A stretch of 27,952 bases of DNA from a virus (taxonomy: Duplodnaviria > Caudoviricetes). Positions 251-27,499 of this stretch are shown one piece after another. The position numbers and the translations under genes are program-made. Each line of letters opens with the position of its first letter. The stretch's first letter is position 1. The notes under the pieces are model-generated. The model was not told the DNA's origin, did no database searches, and saw only the letters and a list, made by a program, of their open reading frames with translations. The stretch lies in IMG/VR virus record IMGVR_UViG_3300005573_000243, positions 1 to 27,952 of that record, one strand, 5' to 3'.

Positions 251-943
251 TTAAACTCCGTATTTTGCTCTTGTGAGCTCATAAATGTTTCTGATTTCAA
301 CTGGCGATAATGCCCGGTTATAAATGTAGGCTTCACCGATGAAACCGTAATATGGTAGGGTAGTGGTTAGCCTTACACCAATATCGCAAGGGTTTGTTGG
401 AGTTGGGTAAAGACCTCCATCTGCTTGGTTACCGTCATCATTACTATTCATCCACACCAATTGGCAGTTTTCTCCATTAACAAAAAGCCTATGATGCGGA
501 GTATTATAATAATCATATGTAAAAACACCAAAATACCATTTATTTAGGTCAAGCTGAAAATTTGTTCCTGCCCTCACATCTCCAGTCGAGTTGTTAGTTT
601 GAAACATAAAACAATTAGAGGGGTCTAAGTGAATTTCATAATGAGAATATTTAGATATAATCGCTCCATATGCGTAGCTAAATTTGTAAAACCAAGCCAT
701 AAGCGTTATCCCTTTAATGATATTATTAAGAACGCTTCCTGTCCCACAACACACATAATCATTCACGCCATCAAAACTCCATCCACATATTCCGGGAATA
801 GCGCCATAGATTGCCCCGTGATTATTATATCCGCTCATATCCCAGATTTTCTGTTGTTCTCCACCATATTTATAAAAAGGTAGGTAAAGAACGCAGGAAG
901 GGTCTAAATCAATTCTATCTCTAAAAACTGACGGTTTCATCAA
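251..943 (-). CDS. LamG/concanavalin A-like domain virion protein
   Basis: Typical phage LamG motifs: DMSGYNNHG, FDGVNDYV, ITLMAWF, WYFGVFTYD, LFVNG, GFIGEAYIYNRALSPVEI. Confidence 0.85.
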   Translation of the reverse strand: MMKPSVFRDRIDLDPSCVLYLPFYKYGGEQQKIWDMSGYNNHGAIYGAIPGICGWSFDGVNDYVCCGTGSVLNNIIKGITLMAWFYKFSYAYGAIISKYSHYEIHLDPSNCFMFQTNNSTGDVRAGTNFQLDLNKWYFGVFTYDYYNTPHHRLFVNGENCQLVWMNSNDDGNQADGGLYPTPTNPCDIGVRLTTTLPYYGFIGEAYIYNRALSPVEIRNIYELTRAKYGV

Positions 944-11318: not shown

Positions 11319-11924
11319 CTATCCTTTTATATGCACTCCCCACTCAAATAAATCATAATAAGGCTTCATTGCTTGTTCTATTTCAGGTGAAGTAAAGCCT
11401 AAATCGCTTAAAAAGCTTTTTGTCTGCGATAAAAAGTCTTCTGCTGATTGATAAGCTTGTTTATAGTATTTCAATACTTGCCTGGCAGATTTTCCTTTGT
11501 GAGGTCTTGTTTGAGCCCACTCATAAACTCCTGCCATTCTTAATGCTTTTGAAACATCCGGATTGGCAGCTACAAATTGAGAGATTATTGACGGTTGCTG
11601 TTCCTTTAACTGCGTTAATGTTTGTTGCAGTGGTGGAGCTTTTTCTTGCCATATCTGACTAAAAGCAGTTCTTATCTTTTCAGCATAAGGATTATATTGC
11701 AAACTTCCTACTGCGTTTATTAGTGCGTTTTGTAAATTAGCCAATCTTGTTGCTTGTGCTGACTCAATATTGCTTTTTAACTCCTCAAGTGAGCCGGAAA
11801 CTTGAGACTCAAGTTGTCCATATTTAGATTGAATTGCACTAAGAAAAGGACTTATATCCGCTGGAGGAGCTTTTTTTATCTTTTTAGTAACCTTAACAAT
11901 CCAAGGAACTTTTTTCTTTCCCAT
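11319..11924 (-). CDS. Putative internal virion protein
   Basis: Lys-rich N-terminus, Q-rich helical body, AGGAGG SD. Confidence 0.5.
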   Translation of the reverse strand: MGKKKVPWIVKVTKKIKKAPPADISPFLSAIQSKYGQLESQVSGSLEELKSNIESAQATRLANLQNALINAVGSLQYNPYAEKIRTAFSQIWQEKAPPLQQTLTQLKEQQPSIISQFVAANPDVSKALRMAGVYEWAQTRPHKGKSARQVLKYYKQAYQSAEDFLSQTKSFLSDLGFTSPEIEQAMKPYYDLFEWGVHIKG

Positions 11925-17767: not shown

Positions 17768-17928
17768 TACTTTTTACCTCCCTTTTTAGCTTTTACGGTT
17801 CTTTCCTTCTTTGCAATAGAAGGATGATAGCCGATCCTTGGATCTTGGCCTAAATTAACCAAGAAGTCTCTTGCCTGGTCTGGAGTCGCAGGCATCTTCC
17901 TTGCCATTGAAGTTGCTTTCTTTAACAT
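17767..17928 (-). CDS. 53-aa basic protein (not in ORF track)
   Basis: MLKKATSMARKMPATPDQARDFLVNLGQDPRIGYHPSIAKKERTVKAKKGGKK; AAGGAGGTGA SD; TAATG overlap with the scaffold start. Confidence 0.8.
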   Translation of the reverse strand: MLKKATSMARKMPATPDQARDFLVNLGQDPRIGYHPSIAKKERTVKAKKGGKK

Positions 17929-17945
17929 CTCTTTTCACCTCCTTT

Positions 17946-19121
17946 CTATGGATATTTTTTAACTTCAGTTTGAACATAACCTTCCTTCTCAATATGAGCA
18001 GGAATATAAGTCGCTTTATTTACTGTTACTGGTTTATAACTTGCCTTATTTACTTCTACCTTCCATCTAAATAGAAATGCTTTTGCTATTGCACTTCCGC
18101 CAACTTTAACTAATCCACTTCCAATATAGCTTTTTATCTTTGAAACTAATGCTGTTCCTCCCGTTTGAATTTTACCACTGCCAACATAGGCTTTTGTTTT
18201 AGAAATTATTGCCTGTCCACTTGTCTGAATTAAACCACCACCAACATAGTTTTTTATCTTCGATACACTTGCCGTTCCACCTGTCTGTATCTGTCCTGAA
18301 CCGATATAAGCCTTTACCTTTGATAATAATGCCTGTCCGCTTACCTGAATTAAACCACCACCAATATAAGAAAATATTCTGAACTTTGAAGTCTGTGCCT
18401 GTCCACTTGTCTGAATTAAGCCACTACCTATATAAGCCTTTGTCTTAGAAACCGCCGCCTGTCCACTTGTCTGAATTAAGCCACTACCTACATAAGCTTT
18501 TGTTTTAGAAATTACCGCTTGTCCACTCGTCTGTATTTGCCCACTACCTACATAACTTTTTGTCTTTGATACGCTCGCTGACCCGCTTGTCTGTATTAAG
18601 CCTGAACCTGTATAAGTATAAGTATTAACCGCCGTGTAATAAACCGTTATCCGAATGTGGTCAATGTAAGAAATACTATTGGCCGCATAGCCTCTGCAAG
18701 CAATTGCCATTCCAAAATTAGATGCATTTATATCAGCTGCTGTCCAGCTTAGTCCCCATAAATCAGTGCTTCCGCCATAACTTTTATAAGTATCAGTTGT
18801 AGGCCAGTTATTAGTAGTATCTGCCTTATTATTTCCCGAAATAGCACCGCCTTTTACAAGTTTAACGCTATAATCTCCAATAGTTCCAGCAGCAGCTTTT
18901 CTTTCTACCTCAACCAAAATTCCATTAATAGTAGCATTAGAAGGAATAGAAAAACCAAAACCAGTAGCTTTTAAATAGTGCGAAATAATACCAGAATTAA
19001 GTGTTACACTTGCATAAACATTATCACTATACTGCGCATTAGCAGGATTACTCCAAGCAACCGTGCCTACTGAAGCATCGTCAACAAAACTACTTCCATT
19101 ATTCGGACCAGCAGAAGACAT
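17946..19121 (-). CDS. Repeat-containing virion fibre/decoration protein
   Basis: N-terminal beta-sandwich domain of about 165 aa, then nine ~20-aa repeats and a short C-terminal tail. Confidence 0.7.
   Translation of the reverse strand: MSSAGPNNGSSFVDDASVGTVAWSNPANAQYSDNVYASVTLNSGIISHYLKATGFGFSIPSNATINGILVEVERKAAAGTIGDYSVKLVKGGAISGNNKADTTNNWPTTDTYKSYGGSTDLWGLSWTAADINASNFGMAIACRGYAANSISYIDHIRITVYYTAVNTYTYTGSGLIQTSGSASVSKTKSYVGSGQIQTSGQAVISKTKAYVGSGLIQTSGQAAVSKTKAYIGSGLIQTSGQAQTSKFRIFSYIGGGLIQVSGQALLSKVKAYIGSGQIQTGGTASVSKIKNYVGGGLIQTSGQAIISKTKAYVGSGKIQTGGTALVSKIKSYIGSGLVKVGGSAIAKAFLFRWKVEVNKASYKPVTVNKATYIPAHIEKEGYVQTEVKKYP
18075..18620 (-). repeat. Intragenic tandem repeat, 9 x ~60 bp
   Basis: Consensus peptide KAY(I/V)GSGLIQTSGQAx(V/I)SKT; one unit is 2 aa longer. 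Confidence 0.9.
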
Positions 19122-19759: not shown

Positions 19760-19951
19760 TTATTTCCTCCTGCTTCTCTTTGTTTTTCGTGTTTTTCTTT
19801 TAGTCCTCTTACCTGCTCGCCCTGTTCCAGTTATTGAGTAGGCTATGGCAGAAGCTTGAGCAGGACTCCGACCACTTCTTATCTCTTGCCTTATAATCCT
19901 GCTCCGCCAATCTTCAACTCGTTCACCTTTTCTTCTTTTAGGAATAGGCAT
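19760..19951 (-). CDS. 63-aa highly basic protein
   Basis: Core motif SPAQASAIAYS and tail GKRTKRKTRKTKRSRRK; AGGGGGA SD. Confidence 0.75.
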   Translation of the reverse strand: MPIPKRRKGERVEDWRSRIIRQEIRSGRSPAQASAIAYSITGTGRAGKRTKRKTRKTKRSRRK

Positions 19952-20273: not shown

Positions 20274-20447
20274 TTAAATAATTACTGGCATTGACGGTCT
20301 TCTATGTTCTGGTCTTTCTGGTTTTGACGGTCTTCCTCTTCTTTCTGGTATATCTCCTCTAACCGTCGGTTTTCCTTCCCCTCTTCCTTCCCATCTCCTC
20401 CATCCCCTCCATCCTCTTATTCTTCTTATTCTTCTTGTTTCTGGCAT
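20274..20447 (-). CDS. 57-aa Arg-rich peptide (not in ORF track)
   Basis: MPETRRIRRIRGWRGWRRWEGRGEGKPTVRGDIPERRGRPSKPERPEHRRPSMPVII; AAGGAG SD; fills the gap between neighbours. Confidence 0.75.
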   Translation of the reverse strand: MPETRRIRRIRGWRGWRRWEGRGEGKPTVRGDIPERRGRPSKPERPEHRRPSMPVII

Positions 20448-21658: not shown

Positions 21659-22081
21659 TTAAACTCCTGCTGGTGCTGCTGGTGGCATTGCTGGCGGTGC
21701 TCCTGCTGGTGCTCCCGCTGGTGCTCCCGTAGGTGGCATAGCAGGAATTCCTCCACCACTTAACATAGCCCCCAACTGCCCCTGCACTTCTTTAATTTTA
21801 GACTCAGGAACTACTTTCATTAAATTATCGATTGCTTTGGTTATATTTTTCCCCTCTTCGGTAGTATAACCATAAATTCCAACAACCTGCTCTAAAGCAG
21901 CTACAGCCCCTGCTACAATAGTATCGGCAATTTCCTTTGAAGATCCTAAATTAGCAGATGCATTTGCTTCTGCTACTGGTGCTGCTCCCACAGTTTGCCC
22001 TTCCGGTGTAATACCTGGTGCTCCTCCTGCTGGCGGAGTTAAGCTTGTATCAATTCCTAATTGTTCTAAAATACTTGGCAT
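21659..22081 (-). CDS. Pro/Ala/Gly-rich head-module protein
   Basis: Helical core flanked by low-complexity PAGA repeats; AAGGAGGT SD. Confidence 0.7.
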   Translation of the reverse strand: MPSILEQLGIDTSLTPPAGGAPGITPEGQTVGAAPVAEANASANLGSSKEIADTIVAGAVAALEQVVGIYGYTTEEGKNITKAIDNLMKVVPESKIKEVQGQLGAMLSGGGIPAMPPTGAPAGAPAGAPPAMPPAAPAGV

Positions 22082-22136
22082 TTTTACCTCCTTTAAAAAA
22101 AGTTAATCAAAACACTCCGGCAAGGTAGGCTATTAG

Positions 22137-22190
22137 TTACTTACGATGAATCCGGCGAACCCTTTTAACTTTGCGTCCTCTTCGTGCCAT
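22137..22190 (-). CDS. 17-aa protamine-like micropeptide MARRGRKVKRVRRIHRK
   Basis: GAGGTGA SD, ATG, TAA; first 12 nt identical to the neighbouring micro-ORF. Confidence 0.75.
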   Translation of the reverse strand: MARRGRKVKRVRRIHRK

Positions 22191-22227
22191 AGTTTTTCAC
22201 CTCGCTTTCTTTTTTTTAGATTAGTTA

Positions 22228-22272
22228 TTACTTTTTCGCTCTTTTAGTTTTCCGACCTTTTCTTCGTGCCAT
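22228..22272 (-). CDS. 14-aa protamine-like micropeptide MARRKGRKTKRAKK
   Basis: AAGGAG SD, ATG, double TAA stop. Confidence 0.75.
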   Translation of the reverse strand: MARRKGRKTKRAKK

Positions 22273-22329
22273 TGCTTTTTCTCCTTTCTTCCACTAAAAA
22301 GTGGATTAAATTTAATAGCAAACTACTCC

Positions 22330-22398
22330 TTACCGGAGTGTTTTTGCTCTTTGCAATCTTCGATAATATCTCCTAAAGTCTCGCTTATTTCTTTTCAC
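22330..22398 (-). CDS. 22-aa basic micropeptide (M)KRNKRDFRRYYRRLQRAKTLR
   Basis: GTG start 8 nt after the portal stop, preceded by GAGGAG with short spacing; stop lies inside the inverted-repeat arm. Confidence 0.5.
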   Translation of the reverse strand: MKRNKRDFRRYYRRLQRAKTLR

Positions 22399-22405
22399 TG
22401 CTCCT

Positions 22406-23971
22406 CTATTCGTTCTCCGAGCCCTTCGGGGTTTCACGTGAAACCTCCTTTTGCATTTCCTGCAAAGCTTTTGTAGCCATAAACTTCTTTATCTTTTCCT
22501 TCTTTGGTAGTGGTAACATATCAATTACAACATCCGGTGGTATGATATTATTTTCGGCAAGTGCCATTACCATTTCTTGATAAGCAAGTGCAGTTATCGG
22601 TGAAGAAGTATGAGCAAATACATCAACCCGGAATGGTATATTTAGAAGTTCTTTATATTCAATCCGAGAATTTACTATGCAATTAGCATAAGTAGTCATT
22701 ACTTCTTCTAAGAAAGCCTCTGTCCTAAGTGCCTTTTTCTTTAAAACAGTAGAAGCAAACTGAGCTAAAATACTTGCGTAAGATGCACTTCTAACATTTG
22801 CCATCGGCTTTCCAGTAAAAACTCCGATTATTCCTGATTGTTCCTTAAAGGACTCCTCATAGTATTTAATCATCTCAAAAACAAGTGCAGGTTCTAATTT
22901 TGGTAAATAAAAATCAAATTTAGCAGTAGGATCAAAAATTTCTATAACTTCACCGGGTGTCTGAAGCTTTCCTTGCATTTCGTTACTTGCAACTTGTCCT
23001 TGAAGTCCATAAACGATAAGTGGTGGTCTGGTTAACATATTTTCGATATGATCCAGTTTTTCAACCTGAGCCTTAATTTTCAAATAAAGGTTCGTGAGAA
23101 AGTGAAGTTCACTTAAGCCCCAAAAGTAGCCTTCTATTGGATTAGGAGTAAATTTGATAAATGGATGTTCACCAGGAATAAAAGGATTAACTGATTTAAT
23201 GGCAATCTGGTCACCTATAATTTGTGCCATATACCAGTCTTTTTTATCGTAGTCATACATCCATAGTTCATAAATCTCCGCATATTCACCTATTTTTTTA
23301 GGCTCAAGTGTTTCGACAATTTCCCTTTTAATTGGAGTTGCAGTAAAAGTTTTAGTTTGCTGATTCTGACTTATAACTATATCAAGAAAAGACTCAGTTC
23401 TTGATGGTGGTGGGGTTATCCTTAACTCTATATTAGGATATTTTTTTCTTGCTAAGTGAAGTGGAATTCTTGCAATATGACAAAATACTTGGTCTTTATC
23501 TAAATTTGGATTATCCTCGTAATATACTGCAAAATCGTAAGGACAAACTGGCTTAAAGTTTATCTTTCTGCCATCAAATATCGTCTTAACAATATATGAG
23601 CCATAAACAAAACTCCAGAATAGCCACTCATAGAATTCTATATCAAGGCAATCATAAATAAACTTTTCGCTTAAAACCCGTCCAAGTTTATCGAGTAGTT
23701 TTTGCGTATTATCATCAATTGTGTATTCAGGATTAGGGACTATATCAAAGATGATATTATCAGGAAGGTAAATTAGACTAACAATATCTTCGAGAGTTTT
23801 AAAGATGTGGTTCTTTATTTCGTTATTAAAAAGAATATTCCTTAATTCCTTATATCTTTCCTGTCTCAATTCAATATTGGAAAGGCAACCATCCCTGAAG
23901 TCAAGAATTTCCTGGTCAGAATAAGGAAATCCATTTTTATTTTCAGTGATTTTTTGTTTTTTATTTCTCAA
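22406..23971 (-). CDS. Portal protein
   Basis: 521 aa at the head of the virion operon; portal-like segments (FVYGSYIVK, HPFIKFTPNPIEGYFWGLS, SGIIGVFTG). Confidence 0.88.
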   Translation of the reverse strand: MRNKKQKITENKNGFPYSDQEILDFRDGCLSNIELRQERYKELRNILFNNEIKNHIFKTLEDIVSLIYLPDNIIFDIVPNPEYTIDDNTQKLLDKLGRVLSEKFIYDCLDIEFYEWLFWSFVYGSYIVKTIFDGRKINFKPVCPYDFAVYYEDNPNLDKDQVFCHIARIPLHLARKKYPNIELRITPPPSRTESFLDIVISQNQQTKTFTATPIKREIVETLEPKKIGEYAEIYELWMYDYDKKDWYMAQIIGDQIAIKSVNPFIPGEHPFIKFTPNPIEGYFWGLSELHFLTNLYLKIKAQVEKLDHIENMLTRPPLIVYGLQGQVASNEMQGKLQTPGEVIEIFDPTAKFDFYLPKLEPALVFEMIKYYEESFKEQSGIIGVFTGKPMANVRSASYASILAQFASTVLKKKALRTEAFLEEVMTTYANCIVNSRIEYKELLNIPFRVDVFAHTSSPITALAYQEMVMALAENNIIPPDVVIDMLPLPKKEKIKKFMATKALQEMQKEVSRETPKGSENE

Positions 23972-24704: not shown

Positions 24705-24732
24705 GGAGGTAATTTATGGAGATAGAAATTGA
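24598..24732 (+). CDS. Putative 44-aa leader peptide (MQKFQRKL...)
   Basis: AAGGTGGT SD-like sequence; runs through the hairpin and overlaps the ParB-MTase start. Confidence 0.45.
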   Translation: MQKFQRKLDSLASKALAEKPTKGSHYLIARVFTGFLEVIYGDRN

Positions 24733-25789
24733 AAAAATAAAAGACACCGCACCAAGAAGAGAACACGGAAATATTGAAGAGTTAAAGAATTCTATCAAGG
24801 AAGTTGGTCTCATTAATCCACTTACAATTAACCAGAATTATCGCTTACTTGCAGGTAGAAGGCGCTTTCAAGCTCTAAAAGAACTTGGTTTCAAAACCGT
24901 TCCGGTCCGAGTGCTTGAAAGTGAAGATGAGCTTTTCGATTTCCGGGTTGCACTGATTGAGAATATCCAAAGGAAAAACCTGAGCGATCCGGAGTTAGCG
25001 GCGGCGATCAAGGAATATGATGAGATGATGAGGAGGCTAAAAGGATCAAAACCAAAAGGAAACATAGAGACCTTAAAACAATTTACCGATTTACCACAGT
25101 GTAATAAATCGGAAGGTTGGACTCAAGAGCAAACCGCCAAAAACCTGAATATCTCTCAACCGGCAGTAAGCAAAGCCATCCAAATAGCCACTGCCATTGA
25201 AGAGTATCCGGAATTAGCAAAAGAGAGGAAGGGAAATGTAATTATCAAGAAATATAAAAGAAAAAAAGATGAAGAGAAAATTAAAAATAAAAAATTTCCG
25301 GTAATTGAAGGAAAATATAAAACAATTTTAATTGATCCACCCTGGGATTATGAACTTAATCTCGACGGCAGGGCAAAGCCTGAATATGCAACAATGGATT
25401 TAGAAGAACTGAAAAAAATGCATATAGAGAAATATGCGGAAGAAAATTGCCATCTTTATATTTGGAGCACAAATAATAATATTCCACTCGCTTTGGAACT
25501 TGGTTCTTATTGGGGTTTTTCTTATAAAACCTTAATTACCTGGGTCAAACCATCAATAGGTATGGGTTCTTATTTTAGAAACAGCACAGAACAACTTTTA
25601 TTTTTTGTTAAGGGGAAATTATCTACAAGAACAAAAGATATTGAAACTCATTTTGAAGCCCCCCGTGGAAAGCATTCTGAGAAACCAGAATATTCATACC
25701 AATTAATTGAAAAAGCTTCATATCCAGCTTATTTAGAAATATTTGGCAGAAAGAAAAGAGAAGGTTGGAATGTATGGGGAAATTTTTAA
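24716..25789 (+). CDS. ParB-like domain fused to MT-A70 family adenine methyltransferase
   Basis: ParB motifs GLINPL, LLAGRRR, ENIQRKNL; HTH WTQEQTAKNLNISQPAVS; MT-A70 motifs ILIDPPW, HSEKP, LEIFGR. Confidence 0.9.
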   Translation: MEIEIEKIKDTAPRREHGNIEELKNSIKEVGLINPLTINQNYRLLAGRRRFQALKELGFKTVPVRVLESEDELFDFRVALIENIQRKNLSDPELAAAIKEYDEMMRRLKGSKPKGNIETLKQFTDLPQCNKSEGWTQEQTAKNLNISQPAVSKAIQIATAIEEYPELAKERKGNVIIKKYKRKKDEEKIKNKKFPVIEGKYKTILIDPPWDYELNLDGRAKPEYATMDLEELKKMHIEKYAEENCHLYIWSTNNNIPLALELGSYWGFSYKTLITWVKPSIGMGSYFRNSTEQLLFFVKGKLSTRTKDIETHFEAPRGKHSEKPEYSYQLIEKASYPAYLEIFGRKKREGWNVWGNF

Positions 25790-26283
25790 TTGACGACGAA
25801 TGGTCAAGAAAATGTGATAGAAAATTAAAAAAATTTTGGAAGCAAATTAGCTATGAAGGGCGTTTTATTTTTGCTGGGTCCAGCTTATTGCAAAAGACCC
25901 TCGGAATCGATGTTATATTACAATCTCAAAATGACGACAAAGATATTACCATAGATACAAAACATATAAGACCAAGAAAACAACAGCTTAATTGTTTTTT
26001 TCTTGAAGAAGAAAGTTGTCCCGATAAAAAGACTTTAGGATGGATTTTAAAAGAAAATGGTTGGCCCGATTATATTTTTTATTGTTTCTGGATAAATGAA
26101 AATGAATGTAAGGCTTATATTATTCCTTTCATTCCATTAAGAGAATGGTTTATCAAAAATAGAGAGAAATATCCTTTATTTCAAAATATTGATACAATAA
26201 ATAAAACCACTGGAAGACTTGTCCCAATTAACCAGCTTTCCAAGGAAATAAAAATTATAGAAAAGTATATTAAAATTCAATAA
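25765..26283 (+). CDS. Putative PD-(D/E)XK nuclease-fold protein
   Basis: GID...IDTK spacing followed by FFLEEES...GW; overlaps the MTase 3' end. Confidence 0.6.
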   Translation: MECMGKFLIDDEWSRKCDRKLKKFWKQISYEGRFIFAGSSLLQKTLGIDVILQSQNDDKDITIDTKHIRPRKQQLNCFFLEEESCPDKKTLGWILKENGWPDYIFYCFWINENECKAYIIPFIPLREWFIKNREKYPLFQNIDTINKTTGRLVPINQLSKEIKIIEKYIKIQ

Positions 26284-26315
26284 CTTACTAAAATTTAAAA
26301 CGAGAAAGATAACCT

Positions 26316-26636
26316 ATGAACAACATTCATAAAAAATTACTATTATCACATTTTTGCCTGAAAGATTGCACTCTTTCCTGGAGTGCAAAAGGATTATATT
26401 CATACATTCTTGACCTTCCAAAAGATAAAGTCACACTCAAAGAATTAGAAGAATATACATCTACCGATATACTTGAAGATAGACAACTTGCTAATATTCT
26501 TGAAGAATTAGTTAAACAAGGATACCTTAAACAGCGCAACAAGAATGGAAAAGTTGAATATAGAATAAATGAAATGCCACCTTTGCTTAAAGAAGCCTGC
26601 CAGTTAGTTGGAAAATGGCAATGTGAAAAAAGGTAA
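26316..26636 (+). CDS. Winged-helix protein resembling the N-terminal domain of phage replication initiators
   Basis: LSWSAKGLYSYILDLP...LEELVKQGYL. Confidence 0.7.
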   Translation: MNNIHKKLLLSHFCLKDCTLSWSAKGLYSYILDLPKDKVTLKELEEYTSTDILEDRQLANILEELVKQGYLKQRNKNGKVEYRINEMPPLLKEACQLVGKWQCEKR

Positions 26637-26638
26637 AA

Positions 26639-27499
26639 ATGCGATCTCCTATTATCTGGTTCGGTGGTAAAGGAAATATGGTTAAAAAACTACTAAAATT
26701 AATACCTTCACACAAAATCTATGTAGAGGTATTTGGGGGAGGAGGAAGCTTGCTTTTTGCCAAAAAACCATCTCCAATTGAAATATATAATGATTTAGAT
26801 AGCGGATTAGTTAATTTTTTCCGTGTTCTGCGTGATCAAGAAAAATTTAAGGAATTCCATCGATTAGTATCTCTTACCCCTTATAGCAGGGAAGAGTATT
26901 ATTTTTACCGTGAAACCTGGAAGGAATGTGAAAATGATATAGAGCGCGCTTATCGGTGGTTTATAGTAGCAAGAATGAGTTTTAGTGGAAGATTTGGGGG
27001 TGGTTGGAATTTTATAATTACCAGAAGCAATCGTAATATGGCGGGTACCTGCTCCCAATATCTAAGTATAATTGAAGAATTACCAGAAATTCATCAACGG
27101 ATAATGCGAGTGCAAATTGAGCATAAAGATTTCCGGGAATTAATTCCTATTTATGATACATCAGAAACACTATTCTATTGTGACCCACCTTATATATCAG
27201 AAACACGCAATAATGAAAAATATTACAAATGCGAAATGAGTATAGAAGATCATAAATATCTTGTTGATTTACTCTTGCAAATTAAAGGTAAAGCACTTCT
27301 TTCTGGGTATCAACATCCTATTTATAAACCGCTTGAAGATGCCGGATGGATAAGAAAAGATTATAAAACAGCCTGTCACGCAGCAGGTAGAACACGATAT
27401 ACTAAAATTTTAGGCAAAGGTTCAGGTATGGAAATGCAACCACGCATAGAAAGCGTCTGGATTTCACCCAACGCTTGTATTCAACCTACTTTGCTATAA
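26639..27499 (+). CDS. Dam-family (D12 class) N6-adenine DNA methyltransferase
   Basis: WFGGKG, YVEVFGGGGS, IYNDLD, FYCDPPY, LSGY. Target sequence cannot be inferred. Confidence 0.93.
   Translation: MRSPIIWFGGKGNMVKKLLKLIPSHKIYVEVFGGGGSLLFAKKPSPIEIYNDLDSGLVNFFRVLRDQEKFKEFHRLVSLTPYSREEYYFYRETWKECENDIERAYRWFIVARMSFSGRFGGGWNFIITRSNRNMAGTCSQYLSIIEELPEIHQRIMRVQIEHKDFRELIPIYDTSETLFYCDPPYISETRNNEKYYKCEMSIEDHKYLVDLLLQIKGKALLSGYQHPIYKPLEDAGWIRKDYKTACHAAGRTRYTKILGKGSGMEMQPRIESVWISPNACIQPTLL

Follow-up and report, generated by a model that had tools for sequence, protein, structure and literature searches.

Host polyamines and metal ions are usually held to balance the charge of packed tailed-phage DNA, and protamine-like proteins are known from eukaryotic dsDNA viruses, where they include baculovirus P6.9 and adenovirus mu. 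The J/VP8 peptides of the Microviridae (phiX174, SpV4) are very short, K/R-rich phage products encoded beside head genes, and the passages of PMC11281519 that deal with them describe a likely role in neutralising the packaged DNA. The internal proteins IPI-III of phage T4 are tailed-phage products present at about 1000 per head and dispensable for assembly (passages in PMC3012670 and PMC9958956); the same passages report that IPI* inhibits a restriction enzyme. According to the relevant part of PMC3012670, lysines of these internal proteins contact DNA phosphates and balance part of the DNA charge, so that an earlier note on the DNA studied here, which held that tailed phages rely mainly on cations and polyamines, has to be corrected on this point.

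The window analysed here is a whole virus record of 27,952 bases, in which the late region lies on the minus strand and encodes the portal, small genes, a probable scaffold, the major head protein, an SU10-type adaptor, later structural genes and the large terminase. The earlier note had placed its genes of interest directly after a portal gene, and this identification held: the predicted model (pLDDT 67) of the 521-aa product of 22406-23971 (minus strand) best matches the podovirus-type portals of Pan3 (E 3e-13) and SU10 (E 8e-12), and its PHROG match is weak (phrog_1216, E 7e-4). Near portal relatives are labelled as Thermodesulfovibrio and Caldisericum bins, and the portal composition leans thermophilic (IVYWREL 0.42 vs 0.39); the host is likely to be a thermophilic bacterium. 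Downstream of the micro-genes lies an acidic, Pro-rich gene of 140 aa (21659-22081, minus strand), which is their most constant neighbour, with family members in 83 of 91 loci. The protein has a three-helix core with no PDB match, and fold and atlas searches gave no function; it may interact with the peptides in the prohead.

Several other features of the window were noted in passing. Small basic ORFs on the minus strand of the head region encode 57 aa (20274-20447, net +11), 63 aa (19760-19951, net +19; phrog_2423, E 6e-7) and, directly before the scaffold, 53 aa (about 17770-17930, net +10), the last with basic-tailed counterparts in relatives. An 11-aa candidate micro-ORF at 20394 was rejected as it is nested in the 57-aa ORF, which has its own Shine-Dalgarno sequence (SD). 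A 391-aa protein with about ten repeats of 20-21 residues is encoded at 17946-19121 (minus strand), and a ParB/MT-A70 fusion and a Dam-like (D12) methyltransferase lie beside the late region on the plus strand (24716-27499). A 77-aa ORF at the contig start contains a 27-nt inverted repeat (1-27 and 140-166, 96% complementary), which may be real or an assembly effect.

Two basic micro-ORFs are present on the minus strand where the earlier note had reported them. ORF-A (22228-22272; 14 aa, 9 K/R) starts 133 nt after the portal stop and is followed by ORF-B (22137-22190; 17 aa, 10 K/R). Both had been credited with a strong SD of their own; measured as pairing energy with a generic anti-SD, this proved correct for B (22197-22203, -13.6 kcal/mol, the same as the -13.6 of the capsid gene), whereas the SD of A (22281-22286, -9.0 kcal/mol) is moderate. 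A small local hairpin is predicted just 5' of the latter (22290-22305). When the 324-nt gap was shuffled with its dinucleotides preserved, one such ORF arose in 11 of 2000 shuffles and two in 0 of 2000, and shuffled strands of the whole window contained 0.06 such ORFs on average; the pair is far beyond chance.

As had also been described, A and B have their first 12 nt in common and end in a common stop context, TAACTAA (22133-22139 for B, with a second copy at 22221-22227, three nt past the ORF-A stop). The 12-nt start is confined to A and B among 19 distinct near-clade micro-ORF sequences, and the A-B alignment scores above 2000 of 2000 shuffles. In a quick tree of 39 rows picked from 88 loci, the window, the sole near-clade locus with two copies, sits among single-copy rows. 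The tandem pair is thus most likely a duplication within the lineage of the window, in keeping with the local duplication proposed before. The stop context is found at 19 of 23 near-clade micro-ORF stops and at 0 of 13 other genes of the window. It provides a stop in each of two frames, and some lineages could pair it with the 3' arm of the stem described below as an alternative hairpin. A reading of TAACTAA as a promoter-like signal was rejected, as the window contains 9 copies against 9.3 expected.

Portal searches for near relatives gave 51 loci, of which 38 were used for gap comparison after repeated and cut contigs had been left out. With portal identities ranging from 100% down to 35%, these yielded 23 distinct gaps, and 21 of them contain an SD-led K/R micro-ORF. 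A profile search for distant relatives gave 502 portal relatives, and the alignment of a clade at about 25% identity matched about 2300 viral stretches, from which 80 loci were kept; the sample thus consists of the near clade and this far clade, the mid-distance alignment having had no searchable block, which leaves that range unsampled. Among far-clade loci with 500 nt downstream, 65 of 70 carry a micro-ORF, and two copies are present in 41 of 64. A second, stricter DNA pattern search returned 0 matches. Removal of duplicates reduced 127 loci to 88 distinct ones, 42 with two micro-ORFs, 39 with one and 7 with none. The conservation in related phages on which the earlier note had staked its proposal is therefore present, in 81 of 88 loci down to about 25% portal identity, together with the coding signature given below. 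The density is specific to this position: 44 kb of post-portal DNA holds 123 micro-ORFs and 1.43 Mb of flanking DNA holds 7, with 0 antisense.

The exceptions indicate where the genes belong. In L268-L270 the micro-gene has moved off the portal and still stands before the 140-aa gene, and in L272 it stands before the scaffold region. L051, a near-clade blank, has a micro-ORF of 14 aa with 7 Lys elsewhere, before the scaffold region; none was found in the 10.5 kb examined of L049. Of the five far-clade blanks, four carry an ORF of 18-20 aa at 35-40% K/R. The association with the portal therefore stands as a matter of position in most loci, but judged by the rearranged relatives the link is to the head-gene block and not to the portal itself.

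Searches of 50,697 phage records with portal and capsid found as relatives two environmental genomes only; two GenBank genomes carry two micro-ORFs each, unannotated, with antisense hypotheticals annotated over them. No such head-region micro-ORF was found in the cultured phages Mx8, Mx9, BUCT555, ppBjS10J-1 and Mwe-JY13 or in two uncultured ones, all with capsids 21-29% identical; a scan of these seven records gave only three matches, all in Mx9, at no more than 36% K/R and none post-portal. The peptides are thus not a general need. A genome collection added one locus, labelled as an archaeal bin, a label that we doubt because the locus carries a gene that by resemblance is lysozyme-like. Side observations among the relatives include a mildly basic ORF of 50-60 aa with conserved motifs over the portal stop in 61 of 64 far-clade loci. 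In L025 (about 11700-11740) a sigma-70-like promoter and a hairpin were seen by eye between portal and micro-gene, and the cassette of that lineage may have its own promoter. A Betaproteobacteria-1 RNA (RF02932) at 594-711 (minus strand) of the far-clade phage L172 is a hint of a betaproteobacterial host.

The micro-ORFs evolve as coding sequences. The 100 distinct DNA sequences encode 68 different peptides, 16 of which are each encoded by more than one DNA sequence; among close pairs, which are not independent of one another, differences at codon positions 1, 2 and 3 number 148, 131 and 519, with 465 silent codon changes against 166 non-silent. Indels occur in multiples of three. The order of K and R varies freely between peptides while about 60% K/R is kept. 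Their 1250 residues include 0 Asp/Glu and no Phe, Trp or Leu, a composition that the filter used to define micro-ORFs (K/R of 45% or more) itself favours. In the far clade, CGT and CGC make up 89% of Arg codons in the micro-genes, 80% in the capsid gene and 60% in the portal gene; in the near clade, micro-genes and portal cannot be told apart by their codons. Peptides of the near clade exceed those of the far clade in length and in charge, with means of 10.1 and 7.5 K/R. Judged by these substitution patterns, the micro-ORFs are real coding frames, selected for charge and not for one sequence. The notion that they are no genes at all, but purine-rich spacers that read as K/R by chance, can draw on the fact that A-rich DNA inflates Lys and Arg codons; shuffles, background rate and substitution pattern all oppose it, and we give it next to no weight.

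The end of the portal gene and the gap after it probably contain a third polycation gene, ORF-X (22330-22437, minus strand), with a GTG start and 35 codons, 17 of them for K/R (net +16). It overlaps the last 32 nt of the portal gene in the +1 frame, and its SD (22443-22450, -13.0 kcal/mol) lies within the last portal codons; an SD of -9 or stronger precedes only 0.6% of 348 out-of-frame control starts. Counterparts of 28-35 aa are present in 18 of 24 near-clade loci, several with TAACTAA at their stops. In the overlap the +1 frame is conserved at 60% and the portal frame at 38%, in an alignment anchored on the +1 motif, which favours +1, and variation peaks at third positions of the +1 frame. 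Beyond the portal stop, ORF-X is open and basic above shuffles in 9 of 9 lineages tested. Against it count that the E/K-rich portal tail by itself yields K/R in the +1 frame, that 8 of 15 counterparts have a weak SD and that L007 has no ORF-X start. In the far clade, the place of ORF-X is taken by the mildly basic ORF of 50-60 aa noted above. Production of ORF-X as a +1 frameshift fusion to the portal was considered and set aside: the loci have no slippery site in common, and 18 of 24 retain a start codon. A PDB search with the sequence gave 0 matches, and its atlas matches were all below 0.9.

The last codons and stop of ORF-X form the 5' arm of a long-range RNA stem that encloses A and B. 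On the minus strand, the 5' arm spans 22313-22346, with a core at 22328-22344 and an inner extension to 22313, and the 3' arm spans 22108-22135; the core pairs with 22109-22125, U-G wobble works on the mRNA strand and the inner helix reaches the ORF-B stop. A duplex is predicted in 22 of 22 near-clade loci with a post-portal micro-ORF (z -3.5 to -9.8 vs base shuffles), and arms pair best with the partner of their own or a close lineage, no sequence being common across lineages. In seven aligned related sequences, 98% of cells pair, against 39-54% in slid controls, and both sides have changed in 7 of 14 stem pairs. This covariation shows that the flanks are selected to pair. In three rearranged relatives the stem has travelled with the micro-ORF, off the portal and directly before the 140-aa gene (z -9.4, -6.3 and -4.8); the displaced micro-ORF of L051 has no stem. 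The entire 336-nt region folds at only z -1.9. The prediction has the arms still paired at 65 C, with the sequence around both micro-gene starts mostly open (0.53-0.77 unpaired). A bulge-helix-bulge reading was dropped, as both bulges are on one arm. Rfam gave 0 matches in the window at E 1 and none at the cassette in 17 loci.

Far-clade loci present a different picture, as the near-type duplex occurs in 0 of 59. Instead, a pseudoknot-like motif precedes the last micro-ORF in 29 of 59 (strict pattern), against 0 of 2950 shuffles and 0 of 22 near-clade loci, and examples such as those in L171, L173, L185 and L251 had no Rfam match. Two unrelated RNA structures thus flank one kind of gene. Within 130 nt after the last micro-ORF, TTGAC or TTGAT was seen in 51 of 59 far-clade loci, a count without a control, which suggests a new promoter after the far-clade cassette.

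The micro-genes are real, and their function we infer. In the reading that we prefer, and which we regard as evenly poised, the micro-peptides would be bulk-made counter-ions for head DNA, produced from a stem-stabilised mini-mRNA. Its first two steps are those shown above: SD-led frames whose coding selection acts on charge and not on any particular sequence, and flanks selected to pair. The stem would then free or protect a short mRNA, possibly through RNase III cleavage of the kind that occurs at rRNA processing stalks, so that peptide output might be uncoupled from that of the portal, a low-copy protein; translation of ORF-X would open the 5' arm. Together with the acidic scaffold and coat, or via prohead openings, the peptides would get into the prohead and there screen phosphate charge and lower DNA self-repulsion. 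By arithmetic, 820-910 copies, at less than 2 MDa against 27 MDa of DNA, suffice for 10% of the phosphates in a genome of 41 kb. A DNA-neutralising role, such as the earlier note had proposed, is favoured because conservation is of charge only and the place among head genes is constant, and bulk output because far-clade Arg codons are capsid-like, B has an SD as strong as that of the capsid gene and two copies are found in the window and in 41 of 64 far-clade loci. More tentatively, and at somewhat less than even confidence, a widespread tailed-phage lineage may make an encoded polyamine substitute: polycations of 10-35 residues, made in quantity from mini-mRNAs of their own and carried into the head, where they would adjust the DNA pressure. 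Each clade would shield these mRNAs by an RNA structure peculiar to it, the heat-adapted clade by a long clamp and the distant clade by a pseudoknot-like fold, and the heat-adapted clade would supply the larger amount of charge.

The main weakness of the counter-ion reading is that no head-targeting signal is seen in the peptides, which have no aromatic C-terminus and no room for a T4-type sequence. The terminase motor strips bound protein off DNA, and strongly condensing polycations can stall packaging, a point for which no paper was found; both count against it. Because of the missing signal, the first rival is that the polycations act in the cytoplasm, outside the virion, where they would cover or compact phage DNA that is replicating and not yet packaged, keep nucleases and DNA sensors away from it, or cause the host nucleoid to collapse. 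Such a role needs no signal, and charge-only conservation and the signs of high output fit it equally well; yet the genes are always among head genes, even after rearrangement, and never among early or replication genes, and condensed DNA is a poorer terminase substrate. We consider it unlikely. Alternatively, the peptides may bind RNA or ribosomes, through an arginine-rich motif of the lambda N/Nun kind acting on the flanking structure, or as small basic ribosome binders that steer host translation. Arg-rich peptides of such size do bind RNA, and in each clade the ORFs lie next to conserved RNA structures, but the stems have no common sequence between lineages, the far clade has its pseudoknot-like motif in place of the stem and yet similar peptides, and residue order varies freely. 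Lambda N/Nun has a conserved small hairpin as target, a terminator to read through and its arginine-rich motif inside a larger protein; here the only terminator-like site between portal and next gene in the window is one of 5 bp in the 5' arm, at chance level. This makes an RNA or ribosome target quite unlikely.

The position of the ORFs relative to the stem raises another explanation, in which they are cis-acting leaders: the ribosomes that translate them would switch the stem between open and closed and so adjust the gene that follows, and the peptide would be a by-product. This would fit with ORF stops that abut the 3' arm, with an ORF-X that runs into the 5' arm and with the conserved stop context. 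Arg codons are common ones, however, and not rare; the SD of the next gene is outside the stem and that gene differs between lineages; and duplication raises dose, not control, while selection keeps about 60% K/R, so that we hold a leader function to be very improbable. A place for the peptides at the cell envelope, where they would displace divalent ions from LPS and aid lysis or entry, is suggested by L268 and L270, in which a lysozyme gene precedes the micro-gene (the L126 copy matches PF00959). Several near-clade phages have lysozyme-like genes among their head genes in any case, elsewhere micro-genes follow the portal, and peptides with no F, W or L have no hydrophobic face; envelope activity seems to us very improbable as well. 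The counter-ion reading remains the one that we carry forward.

A catalogue of phage small genes has reportedly been published by Fremin et al. in 2022. No description of the micro-genes or the stem was found in the titles, abstract openings and some passages of the literature, although that catalogue or the supplements of PMC10690425 may list the families. What is added here is the tested clamp, the travel of the stem with the cassette, ORF-X and the independent duplication; the earlier note on A and B had mentioned neither the stem around them nor ORF-X. If the counter-ion reading is true, a dedicated, dose-tuned peptide gene makes DNA charge balance a genetic variable. Micro-genes of this size are invisible to gene callers and to tryptic proteomics and so may be overlooked more widely; the distant clade alone is estimated, from the portal motif scan, at about 2300 viral stretches. 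A stem-clamped micro-cistron may also offer a natural design for high-yield peptide expression.

Set beside known systems, the cassette resembles several in part. Type I toxin-antitoxin mRNAs encode a hydrophobic membrane peptide whose SD is hidden by fold-back; the micro-peptides have no hydrophobic core, and the start regions of A and B are predicted to be largely accessible. Lambda N/Nun is likewise set apart by its conserved hairpin, the arms of the present stem having no cross-lineage sequence. RNase III processes stems of phage T7 mRNA as well as those of pre-rRNA, and its cuts are staggered, leaving 3' overhangs of 2 nt. In the RNase III stems of Aquifex pre-rRNA, as treated in passages of PMC3074117, distant flanks likewise pair and enclose a whole functional unit, and proximal-box pairs are determinants of the cut site. 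The stem of the window shares the long duplex formed from flanks around a unit, with cutting itself suggested by analogy; it differs in enclosing micro-mRNA cistrons and in a core of 14-30 bp, against about 33 and about 44 bp for the pre-rRNA stems in those passages.

For the peptides, viral protamine-like proteins are likewise small basic DNA condensers (PMC6163548), and ORF-X, at 28-35 aa and rich in Arg and Tyr, is the most similar to them; unlike the window phage, the viruses that encode them infect eukaryotes. At a threshold of E 1, ORF-X and two relatives of 20-21 aa had 0 matches in Pfam and 0 in PHROG, peptides below 20 aa not being searchable. The T4 internal proteins share the tailed-phage setting and the lysine-phosphate contacts, but in the sections of PMC3012670 and PMC9958956 concerned they are larger (IPI* 76 aa) and co-assembled with the core, whereas the micro-peptides are of 10-20 aa and almost pure charge. 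A cleaved N-terminal targeting sequence of about 10 aa, described for IPII and IPIII in a passage of PMC9958956, has no parallel in the micro-peptides, which have no shared non-basic leader. J/VP8 carries an aromatic C-terminal anchor that is buried in the coat protein (the corresponding passages of PMC11281519), in contrast to the family of the window with no F or W in its 1250 residues, and it comes from an ssDNA virus with a 60-subunit shell, whereas the window phage is a dsDNA phage with portal, terminase and tailed-phage head-protein matches. The micro-peptides thus lie outside both the J/VP8 and the T4 internal-protein families, and it is J/VP8 that they resemble most in how they would work.
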